This document shows, one piece after another, positions 24,224 through 64,000 of a stretch of DNA of 64,000 bases. Each line of letters begins with the position of its first letter. Position 1 is the first letter of the stretch. Made by a program: the position numbers and the translations under genes. The notes beneath the pieces were generated by a model that saw only the letters and a list, made by a program, of their open reading frames with translations, searched no databases and was not told the DNA's origin. This stretch comes from Acutalibacteraceae bacterium (lineage in GTDB: Bacteria; Bacillota; Clostridia; Oscillospirales; Acutalibacteraceae), in contig JAZRVH010000005.1 of assembly GCA_045598965.1 (NCBI GenBank), positions 1,289 through 65,288 of the forward strand, in the 5' to 3' direction.

Positions 24224-25875
24224 AAGATAATCGTTTGATTTCTTTTTTCGGCACGTCCTGCACTTTGACATATAAACACGTGCGTATCGCCGCCTTTTGC
24301 TATATGGGGTTGCCATTCCTCATTTTTTCGTTGACATGGCTGTCGATTTTGCCTGCCCTCGTCAGTGCGGCTGTAACACTGTTTATTTTGACAATGGTGA
24401 TAAAACCCGATTTTTTGAAGAAAAAGGAAGCCCCTGCCGATATTGTGCTTAATCGTGACGCTGTGGAAGAAATTCGAATTCCGATTTTTGCGTTAGCGAT
24501 TGTGCTGCTTTTGGCCGGCGTATGGGTTTGGTGGTCGGGCATCGGCGGCGGATTCTACCAGTCGGGCGATTTTCCTTATCGCAATGCGGTATTCCGTGAT
24601 TTGCTTACTTACAAATGGCCGGTAATCTATAACGGTGAAAAAGGAATGCTTGCCTACTATATCGGCTTTTGGCTTCCTGCCGCCATTATCGGCAAAACGG
24701 TCGGCTTGTTCTGTCACAATGCCGACGTCACCTGGAGTGTCGGCAACACCGCTTTGTATGTATGGACGCTTGCCGGCGTGTTGTTGGTACTTTTGATGTT
24801 GTATTTCAACGTGAAAGCCATTAACGCCAAAAAGGTGCTTGTTGCCACCTTCGTCTTTCTCTTTTTCAGCGGTATGGATATTATTGGCTGGCTTGCTGCC
24901 GGTACAGACGGTTTTTTTGACCGCATGGTAACGGAGAATATCCACATCGAGTGGTGGGCGAAAAAAATCAGTTTCCCGTCCGGCCATTTATTGCAGTTTA
25001 GCTCCTTTACCACCCAACTCTTTTGGGTGTTTAACCAAGCGATTGTTACGTGGCTTGCCACGTTAACGCTGTTTCGTGAGCAAACCCCGCAAAACTTTGT
25101 GTTTATCGGAATGATGTCCCTGTTTTGCGGTCCTATTCCGTTTTACGGCTTCTTTGTGCTGGCGTTGGTGTTGGGCGTTCTCTTCTTCTGGCGTGCACGC
25201 CGTCACCCGAAATACACGATTTGCTCGTTTTTCTCGCCGTCTAATATTCTCGCCGTTGCGGGGATTTTCCCGGTTTGTTTTACCTATTTCACCGGCAACT
25301 CTGCCGCAACATTAAAAAGCGGCTCAAAGTTGTTACGCTTTGTGCCTCGCTTGATTTTTAATTTGAACGGAAAAGCCGGTGCCGGTATTTCCAAAACAAG
25401 GCTGTTGTTATTTATTGCATTTTTGTTGTTGGAATTCTTGCTGATTGCGATGTTAATGTGGTGGCATAACCGCAAAGAGTTGCCGTTTTGGGCGTGTATT
25501 GGGATGCTTTGTGTTTTCCCGATGATTTTCACCGGGGCGGCGGCAGACTTTTGTATGCGTGCAACCATTCCGGCACTTGTCGTATTTTGTGTGTATGTCA
25601 TTCGCTTTTTGTTTGAAAAAATCAACAGTCCACGCAAATCGTTAGACCGACTTTTATGTTTGCTCGTGGCGTTGTTTGTCCTCATCGGGTCAATAACGCC
25701 GGTTGTGGAGATGTCACGTGGTATCTATAAAAGTGTAGAAGCGGGGCATCTTGTTACCTATAACGACACGTTTAAGTCGCTGGGAAGCGACGAAAAAGAG
25801 GCGGGAAGTATCAAAAACTTTACCGCTCAAAAATACGAGAATTCCAAATTCTATAAATACTTTGCCCGGCATTGA
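24220..25875 (+). CDS. Large polytopic membrane protein of unknown function (possible glycan polymerase or GT-C partner)
   Basis: 551 aa, many TM segments. GTG start overlaps the upstream stop (GTGA). Conserved-looking loop HIEWWAKKISFPSGHLLQFSSFTTQLFWVFNQ. No family recognised with confidence. Confidence 0.45.
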   Translation: MKDNRLISFFGTSCTLTYKHVRIAAFCYMGLPFLIFSLTWLSILPALVSAAVTLFILTMVIKPDFLKKKEAPADIVLNRDAVEEIRIPIFALAIVLLLAGVWVWWSGIGGGFYQSGDFPYRNAVFRDLLTYKWPVIYNGEKGMLAYYIGFWLPAAIIGKTVGLFCHNADVTWSVGNTALYVWTLAGVLLVLLMLYFNVKAINAKKVLVATFVFLFFSGMDIIGWLAAGTDGFFDRMVTENIHIEWWAKKISFPSGHLLQFSSFTTQLFWVFNQAIVTWLATLTLFREQTPQNFVFIGMMSLFCGPIPFYGFFVLALVLGVLFFWRARRHPKYTICSFFSPSNILAVAGIFPVCFTYFTGNSAATLKSGSKLLRFVPRLIFNLNGKAGAGISKTRLLLFIAFLLLEFLLIAMLMWWHNRKELPFWACIGMLCVFPMIFTGAAADFCMRATIPALVVFCVYVIRFLFEKINSPRKSLDRLLCLLVALFVLIGSITPVVEMSRGIYKSVEAGHLVTYNDTFKSLGSDEKEAGSIKNFTAQKYENSKFYKYFARH

Positions 25876-43144: not shown

Positions 43145-43171
43145 GCGGGGCACGAGAAGGAGGCTACGCTT

Positions 43172-45289: not shown

Positions 45290-45296
45290 AAACCCG

Positions 45297-45325
45297 TTGA
45301 CAAACGAAAAAGAAAGTGCTATTCT
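45297..45325 (+). promoter_or_regulatory. Sigma-A promoter for the third T-box leader
   Basis: TTGACA (45297..45302), 17-nt spacer, TGcTATTCT (-10 hexamer at 45320..45325). Confidence 0.5.
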
Positions 45326-45354
45326 TTCTCTTGTTAAGAATAGAATACCTATAT

Positions 45355-45619
45355 AAAGGCGATGACGAAGACGGTTAAAACGTCCACGTTTTCAGAGAGT
45401 CGGCGGTTGCTGTGAGCCGACAACAGTACGCTTTAACAATCCCTTCCGAGCCGAAGTCCCGAACGTGGGTTTTCCCATCAGTAGACGGCTTCCGTATTTG
45501 CTGCGTGAAGGCAACGGGCTTGTTGGAGCCTATTGAGGTGGCGTCGTTTGACGCAATTTGAGTGGTATCGCGGGATTTACATCTCGTCTCAAAGGAAACT
45601 TTGAGACGAGATTTTTTTA
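45355..45619 (+). promoter_or_regulatory. T-box leader (probable Ile specifier AUC) with an intrinsic terminator
   Basis: - K-turn: GGCGATGACGAAG pairs with CTTCCGAGCC.
- Mid stem: GTTAAAACG / CGCTTTAAC.
- AGAGAG bulge and distal loop GGTTGCTGTGA.
- The triplet immediately 5' of the closing CUUC is AUC (45439..45441).
- T-box sequence AATTTGAGTGGTATCGCGGGA at 45556..45576.
- Terminator: ATCTCGTCTCAAAG / CTTTGAGACGAGAT (45581..45612) plus T7. Confidence 0.8.
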
Positions 45620-45647
45620 TGAGTATTTTTACAAAGGAGGTCTTTTT

Positions 45648-47948
45648 ATGTCCGCAGAAACGTTTGTTGTTGCCGAAAAATTGAAAGAGGTGGCACAGCG
45701 AATTCGTGCCGTGCGTGAGGACGTGGGTATCGCCATTGATGATATGGCGGAACGCACCGGTGTTTCGGTTGAGGAATATCGACAGATCGAAGCGGGCGAG
45801 ACCGACTTCGGGTTTACCTTTGTATACAAATTCTCCCAGGTTTGCGGCATTGAAATTACCGATATCATGGAGGGCAACAGCCCGATTTTAACAAACTATA
45901 CGGTTACCCGTCGTGGCGGTGGATTGCATTTCACTCGTATGGAAGGCTACACGTATCACCACTTGGCTCCTATGTTCAAGCACAAGATTGCCGAGCCGTT
46001 TTACGTGGAAATTCCGTATTCTGCCGAAGCGTTGATGGCACCCGCTCACCTCTGTGTCCACAAGGGGCAGGAGTTTGATGTGGTGGTTAAGGGAACGGTT
46101 AAAATTCAAATCGGCGACCATCACGAAATCCTCCACGAGGGCGACAGCATCTATTATGACAGCTCCACGCCGCACGACTTGGTGGCAATGAACGGAGAAG
46201 ACGCCACCATTTACGCCGTAGTTATGAGCCCCAACACCGCCGATGTGGGACAGTATGAAAAAGCGGTGTCGATGCCGTCGGTCACCAATGTGGAAAAAGC
46301 CAATCTCACAAACCCGATTTACGCCCGTTTCATTGACGAAAAAGTGGAAAACGGTCATTTAACTTCCATTGCCTTCAAGAATGTGGATTCTTTCAACTTT
46401 GCCTTTGACGTGGTGGACGAATTGGCAAAAAAATGTCCCCAAAAAACGGCCATGCTCCACGTTTCTGCGGACAAAACCGCCCGCACCTTTACGTTCAAAG
46501 ATATGAGCGAGATGTCGGCGAAAACCGCCAACTATTTCCGTTCTCTGGGCATCAAAAAAGGCGATCGTGTGATGCTCGTTTTACGCCGAAATTATCAGTT
46601 CTGGTTTTGTATGCTGGCACTTCATAAATTGGGTGCCATCGTCATTCCCGCTACCGACCTTTTAACCGAACACGATTTCACCTATCGTTTTGATGCGGCG
46701 GGAGTATCCGCTATCGTATGCAGTGGTGACAGTGCGGTTTCTGAGCAGGTGGATTTAGCCGCCAAAAACAGTAAAGCCTTGCGACTTAAAGTGTTGACCA
46801 ACGGCAAACGAGAAGGCTGGCACGATTTCGATGCCGAAATGCCGGCGTTTTCCGATGTCTTCCCCCGCACAGAGGATTCCTGCGGCGGCAAAGACCCGCT
46901 TCTTATGTTCTTTACGTCCGGTACAACCGGCTATCCCAAAATCGCCATGCACAACCATCTGTATCCGTTAGGCCATTTTATTACTGCCAAATACTGGCAT
47001 AACGTTGACCCCAACGGATTGCACTTTACCGTTGCCGATACCGGTTGGGGAAAAGCTCTTTGGGGTAAACTGTATGGGCAATGGCTGTGTGAAGCGGGCG
47101 TTTTCACCTACGACTTTGCCAAATTTGATGCGTCCGACGTTTTGCCGATGCTTGCCAAGTACAATATTACCACCTTCTGTGCTCCGCCTACCATTTATCG
47201 TTTCTTTATCAAAGAAAACTTACAAGCCTACGATTTGACTTCGGTGAAATACGCCACCGTTGCCGGCGAAGCCCTCAACCCCGAGGTGTTTAATCAATTC
47301 TTAAAAGGCACCGGTGTGCCGCTGATGGAGGGCTTTGGACAAACGGAAACCACCCTTACCGTCGGAAACTTCGTGGGTCAACCGATTAAATCCGGTTCTA
47401 TGGGAAAACCGAGTCCGCTGTATAACGTGGACATTTTGCTTCCCGACGGAACTCCCGCCAAGGTGGGTGAGGTCGGTGAGATTGTGGTTCGTACCGAAAA
47501 CGGAGCTCCGTGCGGTCTGTTTGCCGGTTACTACAACGATGAACAAAACACCAACGCCGTCTGGCACGACGGTTGCTATCACACCGGCGACACGGCATGG
47601 AGAGACCAGGACGGTTTCTTCTTCTATGTCGGACGGGTGGATGATTTGATTAAATCGTCCGGCTACCGTATCGGGCCGTTTGAGATTGAAAGCGTGCTGA
47701 TGCAGCTGCCTTATGTGCTGGAGTGTGCCGTTACTGCCGCACCGGACGAAATTCGTGGTCAAGTGGTTAAAGCCACGATTGTGTTGACCAAAGACCGTCT
47801 TCCCAGCGAGGAGCTGAAGAAAGAAATCCAAACCTACGTGAAAAAGAATACCGCACCGTACAAGTATCCACGTATTGTGGAGTTCCGCCAAGAGCTTCCG
47901 AAAACCATCAGCGGTAAAATCCGCCGTGTGGAGCTACGGGAAGAATAA
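45648..47948 (+). CDS. Fusion protein: XRE-type HTH plus cupin (PuuR-like module) fused to an AMP-forming acyl-CoA ligase (ACSM/MACS-like)
   Basis: 766 aa from the ATG at 45648, after AAAGGAGG.
- HTH: IAIDDMAERTGVSVEEYRQIEAGE.
- Cupin: HKGQEFDVVVKGTVKIQIGDHHEILHEGDSIYYDSSTPH.
- Adenylation motifs: FFTSGTTGYPK, GYGQTE-like GFGQTET, YHTGDTAWRDQDGFFFYVGRVDD, SSGYRIGPFEIE, and PKTISGKIRR. Confidence 0.8.
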   Translation: MSAETFVVAEKLKEVAQRIRAVREDVGIAIDDMAERTGVSVEEYRQIEAGETDFGFTFVYKFSQVCGIEITDIMEGNSPILTNYTVTRRGGGLHFTRMEGYTYHHLAPMFKHKIAEPFYVEIPYSAEALMAPAHLCVHKGQEFDVVVKGTVKIQIGDHHEILHEGDSIYYDSSTPHDLVAMNGEDATIYAVVMSPNTADVGQYEKAVSMPSVTNVEKANLTNPIYARFIDEKVENGHLTSIAFKNVDSFNFAFDVVDELAKKCPQKTAMLHVSADKTARTFTFKDMSEMSAKTANYFRSLGIKKGDRVMLVLRRNYQFWFCMLALHKLGAIVIPATDLLTEHDFTYRFDAAGVSAIVCSGDSAVSEQVDLAAKNSKALRLKVLTNGKREGWHDFDAEMPAFSDVFPRTEDSCGGKDPLLMFFTSGTTGYPKIAMHNHLYPLGHFITAKYWHNVDPNGLHFTVADTGWGKALWGKLYGQWLCEAGVFTYDFAKFDASDVLPMLAKYNITTFCAPPTIYRFFIKENLQAYDLTSVKYATVAGEALNPEVFNQFLKGTGVPLMEGFGQTETTLTVGNFVGQPIKSGSMGKPSPLYNVDILLPDGTPAKVGEVGEIVVRTENGAPCGLFAGYYNDEQNTNAVWHDGCYHTGDTAWRDQDGFFFYVGRVDDLIKSSGYRIGPFEIESVLMQLPYVLECAVTAAPDEIRGQVVKATIVLTKDRLPSEELKKEIQTYVKKNTAPYKYPRIVEFRQELPKTISGKIRRVELREE

Positions 47949-55779: not shown

Positions 55780-56769
55780 TTATTCTTCTTCATTTTTTGG
55801 GGCAACGTGGAGATTCGCAAGCGGGTTATTTTCTGTCGCTTCTTTAACCTGAGCGGTGGAAAGATGTGTATAAATTTCTGTTGTGCCGAGGTTTTCGTGA
55901 CCGAGAATATCTTTAAGCACCCGAATATCCGTACCGCCATGCTGATACATAAGCGTTGCCGCTGTGTGTCGCAGTTTATGCGTAGAGAGATTTTCGGCAC
56001 CCTCCACTTGTTTCAAATAGCCTTTAACCACGTAATGCACTCCTTGAACGGTAATACGGCTCTTTAATCGGCTCAAAAACAGGGCATCCTTATCCTTGAC
56101 ACCGTCAACCGGCCTCACCTTCAAATACTGCTGTATGGCGTCCCAGCAAGCGTCATTGAGATACAGCATACGTTCTTTGTTTCCTTTTCCTCGCACACGT
56201 AACGAACGGTCCGACCCAATATCCGATAGATTGAGTCCCGCCACCTCCGCACGACGCAATCCGCAGTTGAGGAGAATGGTCAGCATACAATAATCCCGTT
56301 CGGCAAATTCGCCGGAGACACTGCGAAGCAGGTCAATCGATTGCTCAACGGTCAGGTATTTCGGGAGAGCCTTTTTCTTTTTCGGCGTATCCAAATTTTG
56401 CACGGGATTTTTTTCAAGCTGATGGGTGACATCGGTCAGATAATGAAAAAACGTGCGTAACGCCGTTACTTTGCGGGCACGAGTGGCGTTCCCATTTCCA
56501 CGCTCGTTTTTTGCATAGTTCATAAACTCATACACGTCCAAAAGGGTTACCGTTTTCAAAAGCTCCACATCCACCGTTTTTATGGAGATTTCCTCCATGG
56601 GCAGGGTAGGGGGGACAAGCCCTTTTTGCTGTTGAAAATACCGTAAAAAGGTACGCAAATCCACAAAGTATTCGTCCACCGTTCCGGCAGAACGCCCTTT
56701 GATAACCTCAATATATCCGAAATATTCCCGCAAAAGCGGAGAGCACTCGTCAACGTATTCTTTTTTCAT
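55780..56769 (-). CDS. Tyrosine-type site-specific recombinase (XerC/XerD-like)
   Basis: 329 aa. SAM-like N-domain (GRSAGTVDEYFVDLRTFLRY). Catalytic domain with RRAEVAGL, HKLRHTAATLM, LGHENLGTTEIYTH (R..HxxR..H..Y). Confidence 0.85.
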   Translation of the reverse strand: MKKEYVDECSPLLREYFGYIEVIKGRSAGTVDEYFVDLRTFLRYFQQQKGLVPPTLPMEEISIKTVDVELLKTVTLLDVYEFMNYAKNERGNGNATRARKVTALRTFFHYLTDVTHQLEKNPVQNLDTPKKKKALPKYLTVEQSIDLLRSVSGEFAERDYCMLTILLNCGLRRAEVAGLNLSDIGSDRSLRVRGKGNKERMLYLNDACWDAIQQYLKVRPVDGVKDKDALFLSRLKSRITVQGVHYVVKGYLKQVEGAENLSTHKLRHTAATLMYQHGGTDIRVLKDILGHENLGTTEIYTHLSTAQVKEATENNPLANLHVAPKNEEE

Positions 56770-57426
56770 TTTGAAACGACTCCTTTCATTCGTGAAACAG
56801 TTTCACGCATAGGGGGTGTGAAACAAGGGGGAGTTTCCCGTCATTGGGGATACCATAAACGCCCCGAACGCATTCGACGGTATTCTTGCTATCCGGCAGG
56901 CTTCACACAAGCACAGCGGCAGATAAACGGATAAAACGCCCAAACGTTGCTACTGTCCGGCAAGAATTTTCACATTGCCGTTTTGTTCGATTCAGACCAA
57001 TTTTATTGCAATACAATTTATCTACGATTTATCGTTTGCACACATTTTTGATTTTTTGACAATAACGGCAAAAATCGAAAAAATGCCGTCGAATAGAACG
57101 AACCAAAATGACCTACGCATCGATCGGAGAATTTCTATCGGCTACAAACCAGAGGTGATTTTTCGCAAAATTTTTCATAGGTAAAAAATCGCAAAAACCG
57201 TCCAACAGAATATATGAAAACAAACAACATATCAAAACTGCAAACGCCGTTGGCTGTAAACAAGCGAATTAAAGTGCCGACGTTGCCAAAATACATTCTC
57301 GCAAAAGACGCTGCAAATGGCGTGAATAGTGCATCTTAGGAAATGGGAGTAAAACGATAAAAATAGCGGGAAATACCGAAAATCGACCCAAAAAACGGCT
57401 TATTTTCCTATTCCGCCTCCCCTCAA

Positions 57427-57452
57427 CTATACAAAATATTTATTTTGTATAG
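57427..57452. repeat. Perfect inverted repeat (12-bp arms, 2-bp centre) in the AT-rich non-coding tract
   Basis: CTATACAAAATA-TT-TATTTTGTATAG. I checked it base by base against its reverse complement. It can also be read as 10-6-10 (CTATACAAAA TATTTA TTTTGTATAG). Confidence 0.9.
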
Positions 57453-57645
57453 TACGGTGTCTATTTAGAGTATACACCACTTCTTCTCCGAATGCAAGCA
57501 TTTTTTTAATTTTGTTAAAAAAACATCACTACCACCTTCTTTCGGTTAATTTGAACAAATCGTTAAAAACGATAAAAACAGTTGAATTCTGTCAGGTTTT
57601 GCGGTACACTAACAAAAAGATATTATGTTTTAAGGAGGTTTGACG

Positions 57646-58380
57646 ATGAACACCGTTGACAACGACACACGAAAACTACGCCGACGCAAATGGATTTCTA
57701 CCGTTTCTTTGATTGTGCTGTTGGTGCTCACCGTCGGACTGACCGTGTTGTTTTGGAACTATTTTTCTTCCAACAACGAAACCGATTTTCGTGAGTATAT
57801 GGAACGATTCGGCGTGGCAGCTCCCTTAATTTTTCTATTAGCTCAAATGCTGCAAATATTCCTCCCCCTCCTCCCCGGCGAGGTCATGGAAATCAGTGCC
57901 GGATATCTGTTCGGAGCGGTAAAAGGCACCCTTTTGTGCCTTGTCGGCGTCGGATTGGCTTCGGCGGCAGTTTTTTGGCTTGTACGTAAATTCGGACGGA
58001 TTATTTTGGATTTATATTTTGACGTGGACAAGCTGTATGAGAAAAAACTGTTTTCCTCTGAAACACGGATAAAGCGGCTTATATTTTTGTTGTTTTTCTT
58101 GCCGGGAACACCCAAAGACCTATTGACATTCTTTGCTCCGTTGTCCCGCATCACCTTGCCGGAATTTTTGTGGATAAGTATGATTGCTCGCATTCCGTCG
58201 ATTGTTTCGTCCACCGTTGGCGGACACTTTTTGGTCGAGGGCAACTACGGATATGCCGCCGCCGTTTTTCTTATTACGGGCGTCGTTAGTCTTTGCGGCA
58301 TTGTTTTGTACAACCGTCTTATGAAGCGATACCGTTCTCGCAAAAGCGAAAAAGAAATAGTTGATCAAAACGCTGCATAA
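57646..58380 (+). CDS. TVP38/TMEM64 (DedA-related) family membrane protein
   Basis: ~244 aa. FLPLLPGEVMEISAGYLFG and FLPGTPKDLLTF motifs. ATG at 57646 lies 7 nt after AAGGAGG. Confidence 0.8.
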   Translation: MNTVDNDTRKLRRRKWISTVSLIVLLVLTVGLTVLFWNYFSSNNETDFREYMERFGVAAPLIFLLAQMLQIFLPLLPGEVMEISAGYLFGAVKGTLLCLVGVGLASAAVFWLVRKFGRIILDLYFDVDKLYEKKLFSSETRIKRLIFLLFFLPGTPKDLLTFFAPLSRITLPEFLWISMIARIPSIVSSTVGGHFLVEGNYGYAAAVFLITGVVSLCGIVLYNRLMKRYRSRKSEKEIVDQNAA

Positions 58381-58452
58381 ATCCTTTGCAAACGATACAC
58401 ACTAAGGGTGACGCATTTTGCGTTAATTCAACCAGTTGAGGTGTATCGACGT

Positions 58453-58779
58453 ATGACAAAATTAAAATGCGATGTAGCCCATTGTTCCAGTAACGAACAC
58501 GGCTTATGCTGTCGACCGGAAATCCGCATCAGCGGCAACCAGGCACAAGGTAGCGTTGACACTTGTTGTGCCTCATTCAGTGCCTATCTCGGTAGCGGTG
58601 CCCAAAACAGCTTTCGCACCTATACCACTCCCAACCGGCAAATGCCCATCGATTGTTCGGCCCAAACGTGCGTGTATAATCAAAGCGGAATCTGTCACGC
58701 CAAAGAGGTACAAATCGACGGCGATAACGCCACAAAGGCGGGACAAACCTCCTGCAAAACCTTTACGGCACACGGTTGA
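58453..58779 (+). CDS. DUF1540 domain protein (two Cys-rich repeats)
   Basis: 108 aa from the ATG at 58453. Repeats: KCDVAHCSSNEHGLCCRPEIRISG...CCASF and CSAQTCVYNQSGICHAKEVQIDG...SCKTF. Confidence 0.75.
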   Translation: MTKLKCDVAHCSSNEHGLCCRPEIRISGNQAQGSVDTCCASFSAYLGSGAQNSFRTYTTPNRQMPIDCSAQTCVYNQSGICHAKEVQIDGDNATKAGQTSCKTFTAHG

Positions 58780-58784
58780 TTTTT

Positions 58785-58822
58785 GAGCCTCAACCAAACT
58801 TTGGTTGAGGCTCTTTCTTTTT
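58785..58822 (+). terminator. Strong intrinsic terminator after the DUF1540 gene
   Basis: 13-bp perfect stem GAGCCTCAACCAA / TTGGTTGAGGCTC with a 3-nt loop, followed by TTTCTTTTT. Confidence 0.88.
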
Positions 58823-58890
58823 ATTACTTAAAAAGTGGTTAAATAATAGGTATATATAACAAATTTGTAATAAAAATTTACGTTTTCCCA

Positions 58891-58919
58891 TTGTATTTTT
58901 TTGTCGTATGTGGTAAAAT
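58891..58919 (+). promoter_or_regulatory. Candidate sigma-A promoter for the LicD operon
   Basis: TTGTAT (58891..58896), 17-nt spacer, TGgTAAAAT (-10 hexamer at 58914..58919). Confidence 0.4.
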
Positions 58920-58966
58920 TGCTGTAAGTGTGGATATCTATGTTTTTTTATGAGAGGTTAACACAA

Positions 58967-60610
58967 ATGAAATACACTCCGGAACGTAGAAAAAAATGCT
59001 TTGTTTATTACAATGACTCCATTTTGAACGAAGCCAAGACCAAGATTATTAAGACCATTGACACCATTTGCAAAGAAAACGGTCTTACCTATTTTGCATA
59101 CGGTCCCACCCTGGTGGGTGCTGTCCATTACGGCTCCTTTATCCCCAACCAAAACAAGGTGTTCGGCGACATCGGACTTTTGCGTGATGACTATGAAAAG
59201 CTGCTCTCCATTCTGCGAGAGCATTCCGAGGAATACGAGCTTCTGTTGGATGAATATATCGGTAAAACCGATATCCCCCAACGGCTCGTTCGTGTTGGCG
59301 TTCGTGCCCAAATCGGCGACTTGGAGTTCGGCGACGAGGTGGAGATGAAACACGATTTCTGGATTATTCTCGCCCCCTTTGACCGCCTGCCGGACAGCTT
59401 CGACCTTTACTGTGCCCATTTACGCCGCATGAAACGTGCCAACCGCCGGTATGCTCGTGTTTGCTCCTGCCACAGCTACAACTCCGAAAAACACAGCCTT
59501 ATCCGCTTTCTCGGAAAACAGCTGATTTACGGCTGGCGTTCCCCCAAAAAAGAGTTTGAGCGTGTTCAACGCTTGGCACAAAAATACAACCACTGCGAGG
59601 ATGCCCACCGTATTATGCGTTTGGTGTTCGCCAAAAGTGAGCTTGTGTGGGAGGATCAGCTCTTCCCGCTGAAATCGTTGCCTTTTAACGGTATGGAGCT
59701 CCCCTGCCCCAACGATTTTTCTCCGTGGACGGCAACCCTTACTCCGGAGCTGGACAAACAAATCAAATCCATTCAAAAAGTGGATTTACTGCTGCTTGAA
59801 GAATTTGACCGCATTTGCCGTAAACTGGATATCGGCTACTTTATCTGCGGCGGTTCTATGCTTGGTTACGTTCGCCACGGCGGCTTCATCCCGTGGGATG
59901 ACGATATCGACGTGGGAATGCTTCGTGCGGATTATGACCGTTTCCTTGCCGAGGGCGGCAAAGAGCTTTCCGACCGTTTCTTTTTACAAACCCGTGAAAG
60001 CGACCCCGAAATCCCCTATCTGTTCTCGAAAATTCGTATGAACGACACCGAATATATCACCGCTTACAACGAAAACCGCAACTTCCACAAGGGCATTTGC
60101 CTTGACCTCTTCCCCTTCGATTTCTTGCCGGAGGACGAGCAAGAGCAAAAAGCCTTTCTGGCAGAGGTTAAAAAGTGCGTAAAAGTCCACAACCGTGCCT
60201 GCAACAAACAGATTGCAGAGCCGCAATACGACAAAAAGCCCAAAACATTTGAAGATTGGTTCTGGCGTCATGTGGCTCACGCTCATCGCCAGCTGTGGCG
60301 TATGGTTTCCATCAAAAAAACCCAAAAGAACTATATCAAAGTCGCCACCCGCTATAACGATGTCGCAAAAGAGCGTGGTCTTCAAACGGTGGCAAGCTTC
60401 GTCCCCACCTACACCTTCGTCAATTTAGAAGATCTTTTGCCCTATCAGGATATTTCCTTTGAGGGCGTTACCGCAAAAATCCCCGCAAAACCCAAAGTGT
60501 TCCTTGAAATGCAGTATCACGATTTTATGAGTTTGCCGCCGCTTCACCAGCAGTTGGGACACGACTTGATTCGCTGGTCGGCGGATATTCCCGAGTTAAA
60601 AGAAAACTGA
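58967..60610 (+). CDS. Tandem LicD-family phosphotransferase (degenerate N-terminal LicD repeat plus intact C-terminal repeat)
   Basis: 547 aa from the ATG at 58967. The C-terminal repeat has CGGSMLGYVRHGGFIPWDDDIDVGMLRADYDRF and CLDLFPFD. The N-terminal repeat has the same fold signature (YFAYGPTLVGAVHYGSFIPNQNKVFGDIGLLRDDYEKL, WIILAPFD) but lacks the DDD metal motif. Confidence 0.8.
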   Translation: MKYTPERRKKCFVYYNDSILNEAKTKIIKTIDTICKENGLTYFAYGPTLVGAVHYGSFIPNQNKVFGDIGLLRDDYEKLLSILREHSEEYELLLDEYIGKTDIPQRLVRVGVRAQIGDLEFGDEVEMKHDFWIILAPFDRLPDSFDLYCAHLRRMKRANRRYARVCSCHSYNSEKHSLIRFLGKQLIYGWRSPKKEFERVQRLAQKYNHCEDAHRIMRLVFAKSELVWEDQLFPLKSLPFNGMELPCPNDFSPWTATLTPELDKQIKSIQKVDLLLLEEFDRICRKLDIGYFICGGSMLGYVRHGGFIPWDDDIDVGMLRADYDRFLAEGGKELSDRFFLQTRESDPEIPYLFSKIRMNDTEYITAYNENRNFHKGICLDLFPFDFLPEDEQEQKAFLAEVKKCVKVHNRACNKQIAEPQYDKKPKTFEDWFWRHVAHAHRQLWRMVSIKKTQKNYIKVATRYNDVAKERGLQTVASFVPTYTFVNLEDLLPYQDISFEGVTAKIPAKPKVFLEMQYHDFMSLPPLHQQLGHDLIRWSADIPELKEN

Positions 60611-60626
60611 GTATTCGGAGGAGCTT

Positions 60627-61334
60627 ATGAACATCCTGTTTTTGATGATGGGCGGCAGCGGAACCCGTTTTGGTGCTTCCCGCCCGAAGCAATACACCTT
60701 GATTGATGATATTCCGGTTTTTGCCTATATTTTGCGTGGCTACAACAAGATGGAAGAAATCGACAAAATCGTTGTTGTCTCCCACAAAGATTGGCTCGAC
60801 TATGTGGAGGAATGGAAAGAAAAATTCCACATCGACAAGCTTACTCACATTGTCAAAGGCGGTGACACCCGTTCGGAATCCGTGCTTAACGGCCTTTCGT
60901 CCGTGAAAGATATCGCCAAGCACGATGACGTGGTTTTGCTTTGCGACGCCACCCACCCCTATGTTGACGTTGAGGGTACAAAGGGCGTTATTGAGGGTGT
61001 AAAAAAGTACGGCGGTGCCACTCTCGGCCAGCGGCAGTACGATACGGTGTATCGTATGAACGCCGACACATGTATGCTGGAGCAGGTTGTTCCCCGACAG
61101 GAAATTGTGTCCGGTGCGTCGCCGGAGGCATTCCGCTTTGGCGATATCTATAAAATTTACAGTGAGGCATCCAAAGAAGAACTGGAAGCGATGACGTCTG
61201 CTGGTGCCATTGCTCTCGCCCACAACATTCCGATGGTGGTGGTTCCCGCCTCGGTCATCAACCTGAAAATCACCTACAAAAACGATATGGATGTCTTTAA
61301 GAAACTCGTACATACCTACTTTTTTGAAGAGTAA
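60627..61334 (+). CDS. IspD/TarI-family cytidylyltransferase (alditol-phosphate or sugar-phosphate cytidylyltransferase)
   Basis: 235 aa. GGSGTRFGASRPKQY, GGDTRSESVLNGL and LKITYKNDMDVF. Confidence 0.8.
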   Translation: MNILFLMMGGSGTRFGASRPKQYTLIDDIPVFAYILRGYNKMEEIDKIVVVSHKDWLDYVEEWKEKFHIDKLTHIVKGGDTRSESVLNGLSSVKDIAKHDDVVLLCDATHPYVDVEGTKGVIEGVKKYGGATLGQRQYDTVYRMNADTCMLEQVVPRQEIVSGASPEAFRFGDIYKIYSEASKEELEAMTSAGAIALAHNIPMVVVPASVINLKITYKNDMDVFKKLVHTYFFEE

Positions 61335-61348
61335 AGGAGTGTCCTTGT

Positions 61349-62686
61349 ATGCCCGAACAAAACCCGCTTCGTGAAATGGTTACAAAGCGTAAATTGGGAA
61401 TTCATTGCGGTATTCCCTCTTTCTGCTCGGCTAACAAACTCGTCATTGAGGCGATTTTGGAGCAAGCACAGCGTTTTGATGAGCGTGTCGTTATTGAAGC
61501 AACCTCTAACCAGGTCAACCAAAACGGCGGTTATATGCGGATGCAGCCGAAAGATTTTTGCGATTATGTGTATCAAATTGCGGATAAAATCGGCTTTTCC
61601 CGAGAAAAAATCCTCATCGGCGGCGACCATTTAGGGCCTCTGCCCTGGGCGGACAGACCCGCCGAAGAAGCGATGGACAATGCCGAAACTCTCGTGCGGC
61701 TGTCGGTGGCGGCGGGCTACAAAAAAATCCATTTGGATACCAGTATGAAATTGGGCGATGATCCGATTGACGAACGCCTTTCGGATGAGACGATCGCCGA
61801 GCGTGGTGCACGGCTGTATAAAGCGTGCGAGGAGGAGTATCAAAAACTCTTAGAACGTAACCCCGATGAGATGCATCCTGTGTTCGTTATCGGAAGCGAA
61901 GTGCCCATCCCCGGCGGCAATCAAAAGAAAGAGGATGACGTTGAGGTTACCCGCCCGAAAGACTTTGAGCGTACGCTTATCGCCTATCGCAAAGTCTTTT
62001 CGAAATACGGGCTTGCGGATGCGTTTGAGCATATCATCGCCATCGTCGTTCAGCCCGGCGTGGAGTTTGGCAATCTGTCTGTGCACGCCTATGACCGAGT
62101 GGAAGCGGCAAAACTGTGCCAAAGCCTCAAAAAATACCCCGACATCGTGTTTGAGGGACATTCCACCGACTATCAGTCCCCGAAAAAACTGAAGGAAATG
62201 GTGGAAGACGGTATCGCCATTATCAAAGTCGGCCCTGCCCTCACCTATGCCATGCGTGAGGCGTTGTTCTCCCTCGCAATGATTGAGGATGAGCTGATTA
62301 TCCGTGACGACCAACGCTCCCACTATCGTGAAATTTTGGAAGGCAAAATGTTGGAAGACCCCACCTACTGGAAAAAGTATTATAAAGGTGACGAAAACAG
62401 CGTCGCTATTCAACGCCGCTACGGGTTTTCTGACCGCAGTCGTTATTATACGGCTCTTCCCGACGTGGAAAATGCCATGAACAAGCTGTTTGCCAACCTT
62501 GACCAAGTGACCATTCCTATGGGAATTTTGCATCAGTATATGCCGATGCAGTATATTAAGGTTCGTGACGGTTCTCTGTCGCTTTCTGCCCGTGATCTTG
62601 CTAAATACAGCATCGTCGCCATGGTTGAGGATTATAACTACGCCGCCAAGGTCAACTATATGTTCGGCGGATTTTCGATTGGCTAA
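61349..62686 (+). CDS. GatZ/KbaZ-family protein (class II tagatose-bisphosphate aldolase accessory / ketohexose-6-phosphate 4-epimerase family)
   Basis: 445 aa. IEATSNQVNQNGGY, GGDHLGP, KIHLDTSM, IAIVVQPGVEF, EGHSTDYQ, IKVGPALTYAMREA and YWKKYY all parallel E. coli GatZ as I recall it. Confidence 0.85.
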   Translation: MPEQNPLREMVTKRKLGIHCGIPSFCSANKLVIEAILEQAQRFDERVVIEATSNQVNQNGGYMRMQPKDFCDYVYQIADKIGFSREKILIGGDHLGPLPWADRPAEEAMDNAETLVRLSVAAGYKKIHLDTSMKLGDDPIDERLSDETIAERGARLYKACEEEYQKLLERNPDEMHPVFVIGSEVPIPGGNQKKEDDVEVTRPKDFERTLIAYRKVFSKYGLADAFEHIIAIVVQPGVEFGNLSVHAYDRVEAAKLCQSLKKYPDIVFEGHSTDYQSPKKLKEMVEDGIAIIKVGPALTYAMREALFSLAMIEDELIIRDDQRSHYREILEGKMLEDPTYWKKYYKGDENSVAIQRRYGFSDRSRYYTALPDVENAMNKLFANLDQVTIPMGILHQYMPMQYIKVRDGSLSLSARDLAKYSIVAMVEDYNYAAKVNYMFGGFSIG

Positions 62687-62700
62687 AAGGAGACATTACG

Positions 62701-63750
62701 ATGAAAGCTGCGGTTTTACACGGAATTGACGATATTCGCTATGAGGAATACGATACGCCCGCCACGCTTCCCGGCACAATCAAAGTGCGTGTGATGGCGG
62801 CGGGAATTTGCGGGTCGGATATCCCCCGTGTTTTACAGGGAAAGGTCAAAAAATTTCCTCTCGTTCTCGGTCACGAATTCTCCGGATATGTTGTGGAAGT
62901 TGGCGAAGGAGTCAAAAACTTTGCCGTCGGTGATCACGTTGCCGGTGCTCCCCTTCTTCCGTGTATGAGTTGTCCCGATTGTGCTCACGGAAACTATTCC
63001 CAGTGCAAACAGTATAGTTTTGTGGGTTCCCGTGTACAAGGGGCTTTTGCCGACTACGTGGTCTTACCGGAGAAAAATGCCGTAAAAATCGACAGTGCCC
63101 TCTCATTTGAGCAAGGAGCCTTGTTTGAACCCTGCACCGTCGGATTGCACGGTGTTCGTCTTGCTGACTATACCGGCGGGAAACGGGTTGCGGTTATCGG
63201 TGGCGGAACCATCGGCTTCTTCACGATGCAGTGGGCTAAGATTTTCGGTGCACGTCAGCTGGTCGTTTTCGACATCAACAAAGACCGCCTCGATTTCTGT
63301 AAACGGTGCGGTGCCACCGACGGCATCTGCACGCTTGATGCGGATTATCGTGAACAAGCGATGGCACTTACCGAAGGTAACGGATTTGACTATGTATTTG
63401 AGACTTGCGGCGTTCCCGCCACCATCAAAATGGCGATGGATTTGGCGGCAAACAAGGCCCATGTGTGCTATATCGGCACTCCGTCTTCCCCCGTCACCTT
63501 TGAGCCGCTGGAATGGGAAAATCTCAACCGCAAAGAGCTTTCGGTGACCGGCTCGTGGATGTCCTATTCCGCTCCGTTCCCCGGCGAGGAATGGGTGCTG
63601 ACCGCTCATTACTTTGCGACCGGCGACCTTATTTATGACCCCGATGCCGTGTATGAAAAGTTCCCGATGAGCGACGCCGCCAAGGCATTTGAGCTTTATA
63701 AAACCCCCGGTCTCGTCAAAGGCCGTGTGCTTTTATATAACGAGGATTAA
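62701..63750 (+). CDS. Zn-dependent MDR dehydrogenase, galactitol-1-phosphate 5-dehydrogenase (GatD)-like. TarJ-like is the alternative.
   Basis: 349 aa. ICGSDIPRV, LGHEFSGYVVEVG, structural-Zn lobe PLLPCMSCPDCAHGNYSQC, VIGGGTIG and RKELSVTGSWMSYSAPFPGEEW. Confidence 0.75.
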   Translation: MKAAVLHGIDDIRYEEYDTPATLPGTIKVRVMAAGICGSDIPRVLQGKVKKFPLVLGHEFSGYVVEVGEGVKNFAVGDHVAGAPLLPCMSCPDCAHGNYSQCKQYSFVGSRVQGAFADYVVLPEKNAVKIDSALSFEQGALFEPCTVGLHGVRLADYTGGKRVAVIGGGTIGFFTMQWAKIFGARQLVVFDINKDRLDFCKRCGATDGICTLDADYREQAMALTEGNGFDYVFETCGVPATIKMAMDLAANKAHVCYIGTPSSPVTFEPLEWENLNRKELSVTGSWMSYSAPFPGEEWVLTAHYFATGDLIYDPDAVYEKFPMSDAAKAFELYKTPGLVKGRVLLYNED

Positions 63751-63753
63751 GAG

Positions 63754-63945
63754 ATGAGTAAAGACGGCTATATTATCGTCGGTATGCTGATTTACCTCGT
63801 TACGTCGATTGTCAACCGCTTTTTTGTGGCAATTCCGGATGCGGTGTACATTCCCCTTGCCGTTGTCGGCATCACGCTGATGATTACCGGCATCCGCCTC
63901 GGCAACAAACAAGCGAAAGCAGACAAAGAAAACAAAGAAGAATAA
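63754..63945 (+). CDS. Small two-TM membrane protein, last gene of the LicD operon
   Basis: 63 aa. It starts 3 nt after the dehydrogenase stop, has a lysine-rich tail, and is followed by a terminator. No family recognised. Confidence 0.5.
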   Translation: MSKDGYIIVGMLIYLVTSIVNRFFVAIPDAVYIPLAVVGITLMITGIRLGNKQAKADKENKEE

Positions 63946-63948
63946 CAT

Positions 63949-63980
63949 AAAAAAGACCGTCCAATGGACGGTCTTTTTTT
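63949..63980 (+). terminator. Intrinsic terminator closing the LicD operon
   Basis: GACCGTCC / GGACGGTC stem with loop AAT. An A-run precedes it and T7 follows. Confidence 0.85.
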
Positions 63981-64000
63981 ATCTTTTTAACGTTTTTTAG

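Follow-up and report, generated by a model that had tools for sequence, protein, structure and literature searches.

In the TarJ/TarI and Bcs1 systems, an MDR reductase works before cytidylyl transfer. The opposite order has been described for two CDP-hexitols: in the CDP-mannitol pathway (Mnp1/Mnp2) and in the CDP-6-D-glucitol pathway (HS5.18/HS5.17), cytidylylation of fructose-6-phosphate (F6P) comes first and reduction second (PMC10918830). These known pairs use an SDR and need no GatZ, whereas the locus considered here, in a 64-kb window (the whole stretch of DNA analyzed) from a gut member of the Clostridia, combines a GatD-like MDR enzyme with a GatZ-family protein. The sequence-only reading of the window proposed a CDP-galactitol route and knew of no characterized pathway of this kind; the searchable literature yielded none either, but the CDP-mannitol and CDP-glucitol precedents were overlooked.

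Operon structure and boundaries

Five same-strand open reading frames (ORFs) occupy the plus strand, and the close packing reported earlier is fully reproduced by ORF calling, with gaps of 16, 14, 14, and 3 nt. The strong terminators said to bracket the block are borne out by their fold energies. The upstream one (58785..58822, plus strand) closes the DedA/VTT-DUF1540 unit and isolates the operon. Its 13-bp stem includes 7 GC pairs and leads into a T-run; the hairpin with its T-run at 58785-58813 folds at -22.5 kcal/mol (z = -6.9 versus shuffles). At the operon end lies a bidirectional intrinsic terminator (63949..63979) with a 14-bp stem between A- and T-runs, found on either strand (-19.4 kcal/mol, z = -6.6), to which Rfam gave sub-threshold, hairpin-driven matches only. 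Terminator-like matches inside the operon have stems of 5-7 bp, all at noise level. A candidate promoter (58891..58919, plus strand), TTGTAT and TAAAAT separated by 17 nt, with TG at -15/-14 as an extended -10, was read by eye; it is absent from the consensus scan output because its -35 box fits at just three of six positions, and it offers weak evidence for the operon promoter.

In agreement with the earlier statement that the window lacks gatY and gatABC, tblastn (E <= 1e-3) detected no homologues of GatY, GatABC, FGGY kinase, or PfkB in the 64 kb. Purifying selection acts on each of the five ORFs, with dN/dS of 0.006-0.19 relative to one congeneric genome at ~82% nucleotide identity. The last of them, a hydrophobic 63-aa ORF (63754..63945, plus strand; dN/dS = 0.19 over 62 codons), probably encodes a two-helix membrane protein; it matches no family in Pfam or NCBIfam, and its occurrence is confined to the nearest relatives (L007, L010, and L011). 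The previously listed membrane protein is lineage-specific.

Protein families and predicted functions

The first gene (58967..60610, plus strand) encodes a 547-aa LicD-family phosphotransferase matching PF04991 in two stretches (204.7 bits). Its ATG start is preceded by GAGAGG; a longer alternative starting from GTG at 58928 is less likely. The C-terminal domain (residues 276-547) is canonical, with GGFIPWDDDIDVG and DLFPFD; across 47 homologues there is no change in D311, D312, D313, D315, or the FPFD motif. Residues 1-275 make up an N-terminal, degenerate LicD repeat (22% identity between the halves, E = 4e-13) that lacks the acidic WDDDID motif and evolves faster, with 72-76% identity in close relatives versus 89-93% for the C-terminal domain. 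Thus the "tandem LicD" proposed before does consist of two repeats, but probably only the C-terminal one is catalytic. The sole strong structural likeness of the AF2 model (pLDDT 91) is to FKRP, the CDP-ribitol:ribitol-5-P transferase: FKRP structures, the CDP-ribitol complex included, were the only strong matches in PDB.

The 235-aa cytidylyltransferase (CT; 60627..61334, plus strand) belongs, as assigned earlier, to the IspD/TarI superfamily (PF01128, 102.9 bits), though its score is under the NCBIfam cut-offs of both IspD and TarI. It is at most ~30% identical to TarI, IspD, and HS5.18, and its signature HDATHPY has His at the position of Arg in all three. Only 34 of 1.84 billion cluster representatives match it at E <= 1e-30. 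By these comparisons the CT forms a compact, distinct subfamily of the superfamily; it is strongly conserved (dN/dS = 0.016), and its predicted product is a CDP-hexitol or CDP-tagatose.

The third gene (61349..62686, plus strand) encodes a 445-aa GatZ/KbaZ-family protein (PF08013, GatZ_KbaZ-like, 564.6 bits; dN/dS = 0.03), which shares 43% identity with E. coli GatZ and 60% with the catabolic GatZ of Blautia obeum. Its NCBIfam equivalog score is 502 versus a cut-off of 569, and the catabolic B. obeum protein also falls below this cut-off. In E. coli, both GatZ and KbaZ turn F6P into tagatose-6-phosphate (T6P) in vivo, and seven catalytic or metal-binding residues were proposed for this 4-epimerase activity of GatZ (PMC11907403). 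The corresponding residues of the window protein (C26, E50, D93, H94, E184, H271, and K293) are invariant in 68 sequences including it. With these residues kept and the GatY partner absent from the window, the earlier interpretation of an orphan GatZ as an epimerase gains support, and we predict that the protein is an F6P/T6P 4-epimerase.

The 349-aa Zn-dependent medium-chain dehydrogenase (Zn-ADH, with ADH_N and ADH_zinc_N domains; 62701..63750, plus strand; dN/dS = 0.006) was suggested to be closer to GatD than to a generic ADH, and two rankings agree: the best NCBIfam model is GatD NF007642 (287 bits, next family 184), and in PDB the E. coli GatD structure 4A2C comes first (245 bits, next 157). 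By score, the enzyme does not group with TarJ. It reaches 237 bits with E. coli GatD (38.5% identity) versus 38-43 bits with TarJ-like reductases that, in related loci, are encoded next to TarI-like CTs (23-30% identity, of which the 30% value comes from a partial match). The zinc ligands C37, H58, E59, and E143, as well as R43, R111, and W286, are near-invariant in 68 sequences including E. coli GatD, and GatD-specific motifs such as CGSDxPR, GSR, and GSWMxY...PG..W are common to E. coli GatD and all 68 sequences. The equivalog score of 287 is below the cut-off of 550, as is that of the catabolic B. obeum GatD. We predict that the Zn-ADH is a reductase of T6P or CDP-tagatose.

Relatives of both gat-type proteins occur in catabolic operons. 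The Zn-ADH is 61-63% identical to catabolic GatD-like enzymes of Lachnospiraceae gat operons, and 61-64% identical to enzymes whose operons contain a DeoR or LacI regulator, a GatY-type aldolase, an FGGY kinase, and the ADH, plus PfkB or GatZ; each of the four clade members sampled is catabolic. In the B. obeum operon (DeoR-gatZ-gatY-FGGY-gatD), GatZ and GatD are each ~60% identical to the window proteins, which supports the idea that catabolic gat enzymes were recruited to an anabolic route. D191 of the window Zn-ADH is an NAD-type cofactor signature, as typical of catabolic enzymes. This Asp is kept in 4/4 known catabolic enzymes and in 113 of 117 other top matches in the same alignment, whereas 22 of 61 module-linked ADHs have in its place Gly, Asn, or Ser with Arg next in sequence, an NADP-type signature. 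One protein falling among the module-linked ADHs in the tree, P0009, has confirmed module linkage.

Conservation and genomic context of the module

One genome per species was scanned with the CT alignment, yielding 127 relatives; the locus counts are based on the 80 that were retained. Within 10 kb of the CT gene, GatZ is found in 65/80 loci, a Zn-ADH in 61/80, and GatZ together with a reductase in 60/80. The genes (L, LicD; C, CT; Z, GatZ; A, Zn-ADH) occur in at least 10 contiguous orders, LCZA (19 loci) and CZA (10) as well as CAZ, ACZ, ZCA, ZAC, LCAZ, AZLC, and ZALC among them. More than 60 species of anaerobes from gut and rumen, methanogens among them, conserve the module; its hosts include Acutalibacteraceae, Ruminococcus, Lachnospiraceae, Oscillospiraceae, Anaerovoracaceae, Christensenellales, Erysipelotrichaceae, Parvibacter, and Methanobrevibacter.

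The setting is that of teichoic-acid or capsule loci. The most common neighbors are LicD (51 loci), Acyl_transf_3 (34), TagF-type Glyphos_transf (27), GT2 (22), the ABC-2 exporter permease (19) and its ATPase (16), and Wzz (13); a LicD or TagF-type CDP-alditol phosphotransferase is present in 55 of the 65 GatZ-containing loci, and in the nearest relatives the operon adjoins genes for RmlA, RmlB, GT2, and DegT. Two proteins are CT-LicD fusions (P0296, 756 aa; P0304, 769 aa), 60% identical to the window CT and 46% to its two-domain LicD in the respective parts. A few loci (L015, L017) have LicD and CT with GatZ and ADH absent within 10 kb. The conserved neighborhood in varied orders, the fusions, and the polysaccharide and teichoic-acid context strongly support a functional link among these genes, in line with the earlier view of a single surface-decoration system.

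In four Methanobrevibacter loci, CT and GatZ occur without a Zn-ADH and adjoin an SDR related to HS5.17, the characterized CDP-6-fructose reductase (PMC10918830), with 30-32% full-length identity. This SDR keeps the CDP-binding residues R164, D212, R233, and Y295; Gln196 of HS5.17, which touches the C3' and C4' hydroxyls of the hexitol, is replaced by His, a change that indicates no more than a hexitol other than glucitol. We interpret the replacement of the ADH by an SDR as independent convergence. Among CT columns at least 95% conserved in bacteria, 62 of 63 are identical in the archaeal proteins. Columns common to ADH- and SDR-linked modules suggest a single CT substrate, plausibly a ketose phosphate, which argues against a simple "reduce first" order.

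Candidate pathway and alternative explanations

We consider it rather probable that the operon is an anabolic module which draws on central metabolism to make a CDP-hexitol and attaches hexitol-phosphate to a glycan of the cell surface. The GatZ-like protein would epimerize F6P to T6P, the GatD-like Zn-ADH would reduce the C2 keto group with NADH, and the CT would use CTP to attach CMP to the C6 phosphate. This would most likely give CDP-galactitol (CDP-6-D-galactitol, equivalent to CDP-1-L-galactitol), from which the C-terminal LicD domain would move galactitol-phosphate to a glycan that is lipid-linked or part of the wall; the genes that determine this glycan lie beyond the window. Here we infer all substrates and products, the C2 stereochemistry, the order of the second and third steps, and the acceptor, the substrates by homology at 38-63% identity. 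Every part of the previously proposed route that could be tested in silico held; its order of reduction and then cytidylylation is made uncertain by the archaeal variant.

The data fit equally well with cytidylylation of T6P first and reduction of CDP-tagatose second. This reversal, in which the CT makes CDP-6-tagatose and the GatD-like enzyme reduces the CDP-linked ketose to the same product, is a tentative alternative. It is the order used by Mnp1/Mnp2 and HS5.18/HS5.17 (PMC10918830), and it would suit both the near-identity of conserved CT columns in bacteria and archaea and the pairing of this CT family in Methanobrevibacter with an HS5.17-like SDR that retains the CDP-binding residues. 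However, the Zn-ADH is 61-64% identical to catabolic enzymes that necessarily act on phosphate monoesters, the TarJ/TarI and Bcs1 precedent places MDR reduction ahead of cytidylyl transfer, and we know of no MDR enzyme that reduces a CDP-ketose. A product with the other C2 configuration, CDP-D-altritol (equivalent to D-talitol), or another tagatose-derived CDP-hexitol, seems unlikely. The stereochemistry of hydride delivery is unreadable from sequence, identity to the sole biochemically defined GatD (E. coli) is modest, the bridging Firmicute catabolic operons have a putative substrate only, and the archaeal His in place of HS5.17 Gln196 indicates no more than a hexitol other than glucitol; yet GatD leads other families by 100 bits and other solved structures by nearly 90 bits, and its specific motifs are kept throughout the 68 sequences.

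Direct synthesis of CDP-glucitol or CDP-mannitol from F6P by the CT and the dehydrogenase, with the GatZ-like protein as a non-catalytic accessory or chaperone subunit, is very unlikely, even though these are the only characterized CDP-hexitols and the original, long-standing annotation of GatZ was that of an aldolase chaperone with no catalytic role. GatZ accompanies this CT subfamily in most loci with no GatY to chaperone, its seven residues are invariant under strong purifying selection, and the known pairs use an SDR, not a GatD-like MDR enzyme, and need no GatZ. Already disfavored, and highly improbable, is chance juxtaposition, with GatZ and ADH a remnant of galactitol or tagatose catabolism and LicD and CT an unrelated CDP-ribitol- or phosphocholine-type pair, or with the CT a housekeeping IspD. 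The host does use the MEP pathway, as dxs, dxr, and ispA within the window show, several pipelines label these CTs IspD, and close catabolic relatives of GatZ and ADH exist. Against this, the genes are spaced by 14-16 nt between two strong terminators, the triad is kept across phyla in many orders, and a kinase, PTS, aldolase, and regulator are all absent from the window. The CT lacks the signature Arg as well as IspD- or TarI-level scores, and its family is present in Methanobrevibacter, where, as in archaea generally, the mevalonate and not the MEP pathway is expected. Moreover, three loci (L016, L023, and L031) carry separate TarI/TarJ-like pairs alongside the module.

No report of CDP-galactitol or of a galactitol-phosphate polymer was found in the searchable literature, a silence that fits novelty but also weighs against the preferred CDP-galactitol route. 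If true, this would be a nucleotide-alditol route new to the searchable literature and kin to the known CDP-alditol pathways.

The operon and its chromosomal setting

The five genes at 58967-63945 are read here as a possible route to an activated hexitol. The GatZ-like protein would turn fructose-6-phosphate (F6P) into tagatose-6-phosphate (T6P), reduction by the GatD-like dehydrogenase (ADH) and cytidylylation by the cytidylyltransferase (CT), in either order, would yield CDP-galactitol, and LicD would move galactitol-phosphate onto a surface glycan. We consider it likely that a CDP-hexitol is made via T6P and, with less assurance, favor galactitol as the hexitol; substrates, products, stereochemistry and acceptor are all deduced from sequence.

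The gene order and the spacers of 16, 14, 14 and 3 nt described in the sequence-only reading were recovered in the ORF calls. On the plus strand, the LicD gene (58967-60610) starts with an ATG preceded by GAGAGG (from an alternative GTG at 58928 the ORF would be 13 codons longer), and is followed by the genes for the CT (60627-61334), the GatZ-like protein (61349-62686) and the ADH (62701-63750), and by a 63-aa ORF (63754-63945) that has no Pfam or NCBIfam match. The flanking terminators are indeed strong, with hairpins of -22.5 and -19.4 kcal/mol (z = -6.9 and -6.6 versus shuffles), and the terminator-like matches inside the operon are 5-7 bp stems at the noise level. The downstream terminator, at 63949-63979, is bidirectional, a perfect hairpin lying between an upstream A-run and a downstream T-run; since a convergent RmlB-like gene follows the operon in L001 and L011, the loci of the closest relatives with longer contigs, it may also end a convergent gene past the end of the window, which lies 21 nt beyond it. 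A consensus scan for a promoter upstream of LicD gave no convincing site, and a candidate picked by eye is weak. No riboswitch was detected in an Rfam scan of 56500-64000, where the sub-threshold matches came from the terminator hairpin.

All five ORFs are under purifying selection in comparison with the congeneric genome L007 (about 82% nucleotide identity); dN/dS is lowest for the ADH (0.006) and highest for the small ORF (0.19), with the CT at 0.016, GatZ at 0.030 and the two LicD halves at 0.094 and 0.041. Over 62701-63945 the dS values are 0.42 for the ADH and 0.15 for the small ORF, compared with 1.1-1.8 for LicD, CT and GatZ; these low values suggest recent recombination or transfer at the 3' end of the operon.

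The DNA is chromosomal and comes from a spore former of the Acutalibacteraceae; the nearest genomes are metagenome-assembled ones (MAGs) of Acutalibacteraceae and from horse faeces. The upstream genes are housekeeping and sporulation genes (pyrH, frr, uppS, cdsA, dxr, rseP, ileS, dxs, ispA, spoIIIA, spoIIE), after which come a XerC-like integrase on the minus strand, a DedA/VTT-domain membrane protein and a DUF1540 protein (together 55780-58779, directly upstream of the operon), the last two forming a separate unit closed by the terminator at 58785. The upstream synteny of L001 and L011 is as in the window, the order of these three genes being kept in L001 and the integrase alone being confirmed in L011. 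Members of the DedA family have been linked to the recycling of undecaprenyl phosphate, a function of possible relevance to a neighboring glycan pathway. Downstream of the operon, both relatives carry a convergent nucleotide-sugar and glycosyltransferase cluster with RmlB, RmlA, GT2 and DegT, joined in L001 by TPP-enzyme and HMGL-like genes. The short-chain reductase (SDR) encoded in this cluster was considered as a substitute reductase and rejected, its Asp-Glu dehydratase pair and the neighboring RmlA-like gene identifying it as RmlB-like. Elsewhere in the window, a GT87-like polytopic membrane glycosyltransferase (505 aa) overlaps by 4 nt a 551-aa protein without a Pfam match (22706-25875), and 41285-47948 encodes three unusual proteins: a 619-aa GGDEF protein, a 705-aa EAL phosphodiesterase whose N-terminal membrane domain is PTS-EIIC-like, and an HTH-cupin-AMP-binding fusion protein of 796 aa.

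The cytidylyltransferase, LicD and their conserved neighbors

The assignment of the CT to the IspD/TarI type holds at the level of the superfamily (PF01128, 102.9 bits versus a cut-off of 27) and fails for IspD or TarI proper, as the protein falls under both NCBIfam cut-offs (124.5 bits versus 181.3 for the IspD equivalog TIGR00453; 121.9 versus 166 for the TarI subfamily NF001183). Its identity to TarI, to IspD and to the F6P cytidylyltransferase HS5.18 does not exceed about 30%, its signature HDATHPY has His in place of the Arg of the HDxxRP motif of all three, and its neighboring reductase is GatD-like, not TarJ-like. The subfamily is compact: among 1.84 billion cluster representatives there are only 34 matches at E <= 1e-30, about 20 of them at least 39% identical, below which the scores fall to the generic IspD/TarI level. 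The identification of the CT as the housekeeping IspD of a host whose dxs and dxr lie in the same window is rejected on three counts, namely the score under the cut-off, the His for Arg replacement, and the occurrence of the subfamily also in Methanobrevibacter.

LicD matches PF04991 in two stretches (204.7 bits versus a cut-off of 22.6), the best of which, residues 284-518, covers the whole profile. The tandem arrangement proposed earlier is thus real as regards two domains, and the possibility that both are active is rejected. Residues 276-547 form a canonical, highly conserved C-terminal domain, with D311, D312, D313, D315, D380 and D385 of the DxD and FPFD-type motifs invariant in 47 homologues, whereas residues 1-275 form a degenerate N-terminal copy, 22% identical to the C-terminal domain, with few conserved positions and with NQNKVFGDIG in place of the first acidic motif (WDDDID). 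A single active domain is therefore predicted. The N-terminal domain diverges more quickly in close relatives (72-76% identity versus 89-93%) and may have a role in acceptor recognition or a structural one. The AF2 model of LicD (pLDDT 91, pTM 0.84) has 13 matches at E <= 1e-3, all of them chains of the mammalian protein FKRP, including its CDP-ribitol complex 6KAM, and FKRP is the sole strong PDB match by both sequence and structure.

The CT served as the anchor for a comparison of genomes. An alignment of 19 CT homologues was used to scan one genome per species in GTDB, which yielded 127 relatives; 80 loci were kept, and neighbors within 10 kb of the CT were identified by tblastn and ORF clustering. 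A GatZ homologue is present in 65 of the 80 loci, a GatD-like ADH in 61, GatZ together with a reductase in 60, and LicD in 51, and many of the loci that miss module neighbors are contigs that break off. The contiguous order LicD-CT-GatZ-ADH occurs in 19 loci and CT-GatZ-ADH in 10; CT-ADH-GatZ, ADH-CT-GatZ, GatZ-CT-ADH, GatZ-ADH-CT and other orders are also found, and such shifting of the gene order points to functional coupling rather than inherited synteny. The hosts include Acutalibacteraceae, Ruminococcus, Lachnospiraceae, Oscillospiraceae, Anaerovoracaceae, Christensenellales, Erysipelotrichaceae, Parvibacter (Eggerthellaceae) and Methanobrevibacter. Frequent neighbors are Acyl_transf_3 proteins (34 loci), TagF-type CDP-alditol phosphotransferases (27), GT2 (22), ABC-2 exporter permeases (19) and ATPases (16), and Wzz (13). 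The 65 GatZ-containing loci divide into 32 with LicD only, 13 with a TagF-type enzyme only, 10 with both and 10 with neither.

Natural fusions add to this picture. In two public proteins, P0296 (756 aa) and P0304 (769 aa), an N-terminal CT, 60% identical to that of the window, is joined to a two-domain LicD that is 46% identical to the window LicD, which lends indirect support to the predicted transfer of a phospho-alcohol from a CDP donor to a glycan. Taken together, the neighborhoods, the gene orders and the fusions indicate that LicD or TagF-type phosphotransferases use the CT product as their donor, and that GatZ and the ADH take part in making this donor.

Locus L047 (10001-12256) encodes such a fusion in a single polypeptide, and in the protein P0360 another CT (21% identical) is fused to a similar LicD. 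In L015 and L017 (6858-11713), and in L012 and L024, all of Lachnospiraceae/Eubacterium, a LicD with three or four domains (700-1046 aa) accompanies the same CT subfamily and an acyltransferase, with no GatZ or ADH within 10 kb; L013, L021 and L026 share this LicD type, with GatZ and ADH upstream. Pairs of a TarI-like CT and a TarJ-like medium-chain dehydrogenase (MDR), putatively for CDP-ribitol synthesis, were observed in L016 (5393-7109), L023 (12603-14330) and L031 (10735-12455), and their presence beside CT-GatZ-ADH in one glycan locus suggests polymers with two different phospho-alditols.

Relation of GatZ and the dehydrogenase to galactitol catabolism

The GatZ-like protein matches PF08013 over profile positions 1-419 of 420 (564.6 bits) and falls under the cut-off of the aldolase-subunit equivalog TIGR02810 (502.4 versus 568.8 bits); its relatives in PDB are 3TXV (Sinorhizobium) and 2FIQ (E. 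coli GatZ). For many years GatZ and KbaZ of E. coli were annotated as chaperones of the aldolase; they were reported to turn F6P into T6P in vivo, and an aldol/retro-aldol mechanism involving C20, E44, D87, H88, E171, H257 and K279 of GatZ was proposed (PMC11907403); T6P 4-epimerases of the GatZ family from Agrobacterium and Sinorhizobium are cited in the same work (PMC11907403). The window protein has every one of the seven (C26, E50, D93, H94, E184, H271 and K293), and these catalytic and metal positions are invariant in 68 sequences. There is no GatY homologue as its partner in the window: in agreement with the sequence-only reading, tblastn with E. coli GatY, GatA, GatB and GatC found nothing else in the 64 kb, and neither did Firmicute GatY, FGGY-kinase and PfkB queries.

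The dehydrogenase was considered closer to GatD than to a generic alcohol dehydrogenase, and this is borne out by its best solved relative, 4A2C (E. coli GatD), at 245 bits versus 157 for the next. GatD is also its best family by about 100 bits (NF007642, 287.1 bits; next threonine dehydrogenase, 184). The score is under the NF007642 cut-off of 550, which mirrors the phylogenetic distance from Enterobacteria, since the GatD-like enzyme of the catabolic gat operon of Blautia obeum likewise stays below it with 318 bits. The ADH and GatD share the motifs CGSDxPR, GSR and GSWMxY...PG..W, almost invariant in 68 aligned sequences including E. coli GatD; in the same set the Zn ligands C37, H58, E59 and E143 and the four-Cys structural Zn site, as well as R43 (CGSDxPR), R111 (GSR) and W286 (GSWM), are all but invariant, with one deviating sequence each for R111 and E143. 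The ADH may interconvert galactitol-1-phosphate and T6P. It does not cluster with TarJ: its score is 237 bits with E. coli GatD as against 38-43 bits with the TarJ-like MDRs, and it is 23-30% identical to those beside the TarI-like CTs of L016 and L031 (the 30% match is partial). In a neighbor-joining tree of ADHs, the TarJ-like MDRs of L016, L023 and L031, assigned to TarJ by context, form the most basal and distant branch. The TarJ/CDP-ribitol interpretation of the operon is rejected on these grounds.

The ADH is 61-64% identical to a large Lachnospiraceae clade, and all four members of it that were sampled lie in catabolic operons with a DeoR or LacI regulator, a GatY-type aldolase, an FGGY kinase and the ADH, together with PfkB or GatZ. 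Gat-like operons of this sort, kinase-dependent and PTS-independent, were seen in the Lachnospiraceae loci L004 (7609-11989), L088 (2474-8050), L091 (2606-8010) and L092 (2312-7059), and to our knowledge the type is uncharacterised. In neighbor-joining trees without support values, the module-linked ADHs form a paraphyletic grade around the catabolic clade, with P0009, encoded in an ABC-LicD-LicD-CT-GatZ-ADH-acyltransferase-TagF locus, among the module-linked sequences, and the GatZ of the B. obeum catabolic operon, 60% identical to that of the window, nests within the module-linked GatZ radiation. The identity to the catabolic clade and the placement in the trees indicate that the window GatZ and ADH are the same kind of enzymes as the catabolic gat pair in another context, and the Lachnospiraceae operon is apparently the source or the sister of the biosynthetic pair. 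The idea of catabolic gat enzymes recruited into an anabolic route is supported by this identity of GatZ and ADH to the enzymes of the catabolic operons.

More distant counterparts are encoded by the E. coli operon gatYZABCD, whose GatZ and GatD are 43% and 38.5% identical to the window proteins and share their catalytic residues; for the Blautia/Extibacter operons the figures are 60% and 61-63%. Of the other components of such operons, the window has neither GatY nor a PTS, FGGY kinase, PfkB or DeoR/LacI regulator. As the module genes are coupled to the CT and phosphotransferases in glycan loci, the flux through them would be reductive and biosynthetic. At the cofactor-specificity position, 22 of the 61 module-linked ADHs (L025, L027, L034, L047, L049, L056, L061, L069, L074, L078, L085 and others) have Gly, Asn or Ser followed by Arg instead of Asp, an NADP-type signature in MDRs. 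Carried by a third of the module-linked enzymes, it is almost never found in the catabolic clade, the Asp being kept in 4/4 known catabolic enzymes and in 113/117 other top matches. The NADP-type signatures fit a reductive biosynthetic role for at least part of the family; the window ADH keeps the NAD-type Asp (D191/I192).

Archaeal loci, alternative products and known CDP-alditol systems

In four Methanobrevibacter loci, all from MAGs, the CT and GatZ are present, the Zn-dependent ADH is absent, and an SDR gene directly adjoins them (L035, 8817-12021; L038, 9965-13100; L045, 8858-12024; L054, 8871-12024); LicD, GT2 and an FkbM-type methyltransferase are also encoded there. Over its full length the SDR has 30-32% identity (E about 1e-33) to Campylobacter jejuni HS5.17, which reduces CDP-6-D-fructose in the CDP-6-D-glucitol pathway and whose structure has been characterised (PMC10918830). 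The SDR retains the Y/K catalytic pair along with E140 and R208, as well as the residues for CDP binding (R164, D212, R233 and Y295), and has His at the position of Gln196, which in HS5.17 bridges the C3' and C4' hydroxyls of glucitol. A CDP-ketohexose reductase beside CT-GatZ would be expected if the module makes a CDP-hexitol unlike glucitol near C4. The archaeal CT is 58-61% identical to that of the window, which suggests inter-domain transfer, and the archaeal CTs agree with the bacterial ones in 62 of the 63 alignment columns whose conservation across 70 bacterial CTs is at least 95%, so that the specificity is probably alike in both.

From this we infer that the CT either takes a ketose phosphate, the GatD-like enzyme then reducing CDP-tagatose, or ignores the oxidation state at C2. 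Cytidylylation before reduction, a mechanistic variant within the main model, has precedents in HS5.18 and Mnp1, which accept a ketose phosphate (PMC10918830); we put it forward tentatively, the GatD likeness of the bacterial reductase being in line with the opposite order. As to the sugar, the product expected from the T6P route is galacto or altro, and the GatD relationship favors the former; the altritol epimer is unlikely. CDP-glucitol or CDP-mannitol would be formed if GatZ were non-catalytic, as in the known pathways that proceed directly from F6P without an epimerase; given a GatZ with all seven residues of the proposed mechanism, we regard this as improbable. Least credible of all is that the genes stand together by chance or that the CT is IspD. 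The variety of gene orders, indicative of functional coupling, speaks against chance. The galactitol route via T6P is retained as the main model.

The proposed route follows the same three-part logic as the CDP-ribitol pathway TarJ/TarI (Bcs1 in Haemophilus) with LicD or TarK/TarL, which serves the ribitol-phosphate of wall teichoic acid and capsules: a Zn-dependent MDR that reduces a ketose phosphate, an IspD/TarI-type CT, for which TarI enzymes are the best PDB matches, and a LicD/TagF-type phosphotransferase, in both cases in teichoic-acid or capsule loci with ABC-2 exporters. It would differ in the use of a C6 ketose and an extra 4-epimerase, GatZ, instead of ribulose-5-phosphate, and TarIJ-like pairs are separate from the module in some of the same loci. 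Also comparable are the pathways for CDP-6-D-glucitol (HS5.18/HS5.17, C. jejuni HS:5) and CDP-D-mannitol (Mnp1/Mnp2, S. pneumoniae 35A) (PMC10918830), in which, as predicted for the module, a CDP-hexitol is formed from a ketohexose-6-phosphate by a PF01128 CT and a reductase, and whose products serve capsule or LPS phospho-hexitol. However, there the CDP-ketose is reduced by an SDR (PF01370), whereas the window encodes a GatD-related Zn-MDR and no such SDR; the pairing of a PF01128 CT with a PF01370 SDR recurs in the Methanobrevibacter variant, the window CT is 29% identical to HS5.18, and the known products are gluco or manno. The mammalian ISPD/fukutin/FKRP system, which builds tandem ribitol-5-phosphate on alpha-dystroglycan, also combines an IspD-type CT with LicD-superfamily enzymes that use a CDP-alditol. 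FKRP, the CDP-ribitol:ribitol-5-phosphate transferase, shares the motif G-G-S-x-L-G...PWD-x-D-x-D with the window LicD; the low TM-scores between the two (0.23-0.30) reflect that the catalytic core alone is shared, the bacterial protein having a degenerate second LicD domain where FKRP has its stem domain. That system belongs to eukaryotes and works with a pentitol.

The earlier statement that no characterised CDP-galactitol pathway is known stands for the literature searched, most subscription journals being outside its scope; within the same scope we found no galactitol-, altritol- or talitol-phosphate polymer, and nothing relevant on GatZ in a nucleotide-alditol context, GatZ with a cytidylyltransferase, or tagatose with LicD. 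NCBIfam (June 2026) has no model for the CT, the GatZ-like protein or the ADH in a CDP-hexitol role. The present names "IspD", "tagatose-bisphosphate aldolase subunit" and "galactitol-1-phosphate dehydrogenase" would be a systematic mis-annotation in genomes that carry the module.

CDP-alditol pathways, known for glycerol, ribitol, arabinitol, mannitol and glucitol, feed the phospho-alditols of teichoic acids and capsules, and such units govern phage adsorption, immune recognition and serotype. It is about as likely as not that galactitol-phosphate or another T6P-derived hexitol-phosphate is a widespread constituent, so far undescribed chemically, of capsules and teichoic-acid-like polymers in Firmicutes of the gut and rumen, Eggerthellaceae and Methanobrevibacter. 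It would be made by a dedicated CDP-hexitol module of recruited gat enzymes, with GatZ serving as the 4-epimerase and GatD as the reductase of a biosynthetic route; the module would have been shared horizontally between bacteria and archaea, and its reductase slot would have been taken on two independent occasions, in bacteria by a Zn-MDR and in methanogens by an SDR of the HS5.17 type. If the CDP-galactitol route is true, it would provide a new activated alditol, the first physiological biosynthetic role for the long-puzzling GatZ/KbaZ family, and a clear case of catabolic enzymes recruited into surface-glycan synthesis. Many uncultured anaerobes of the gut and rumen carry the module, as does Methanobrevibacter, and a new surface epitope is predicted for them.
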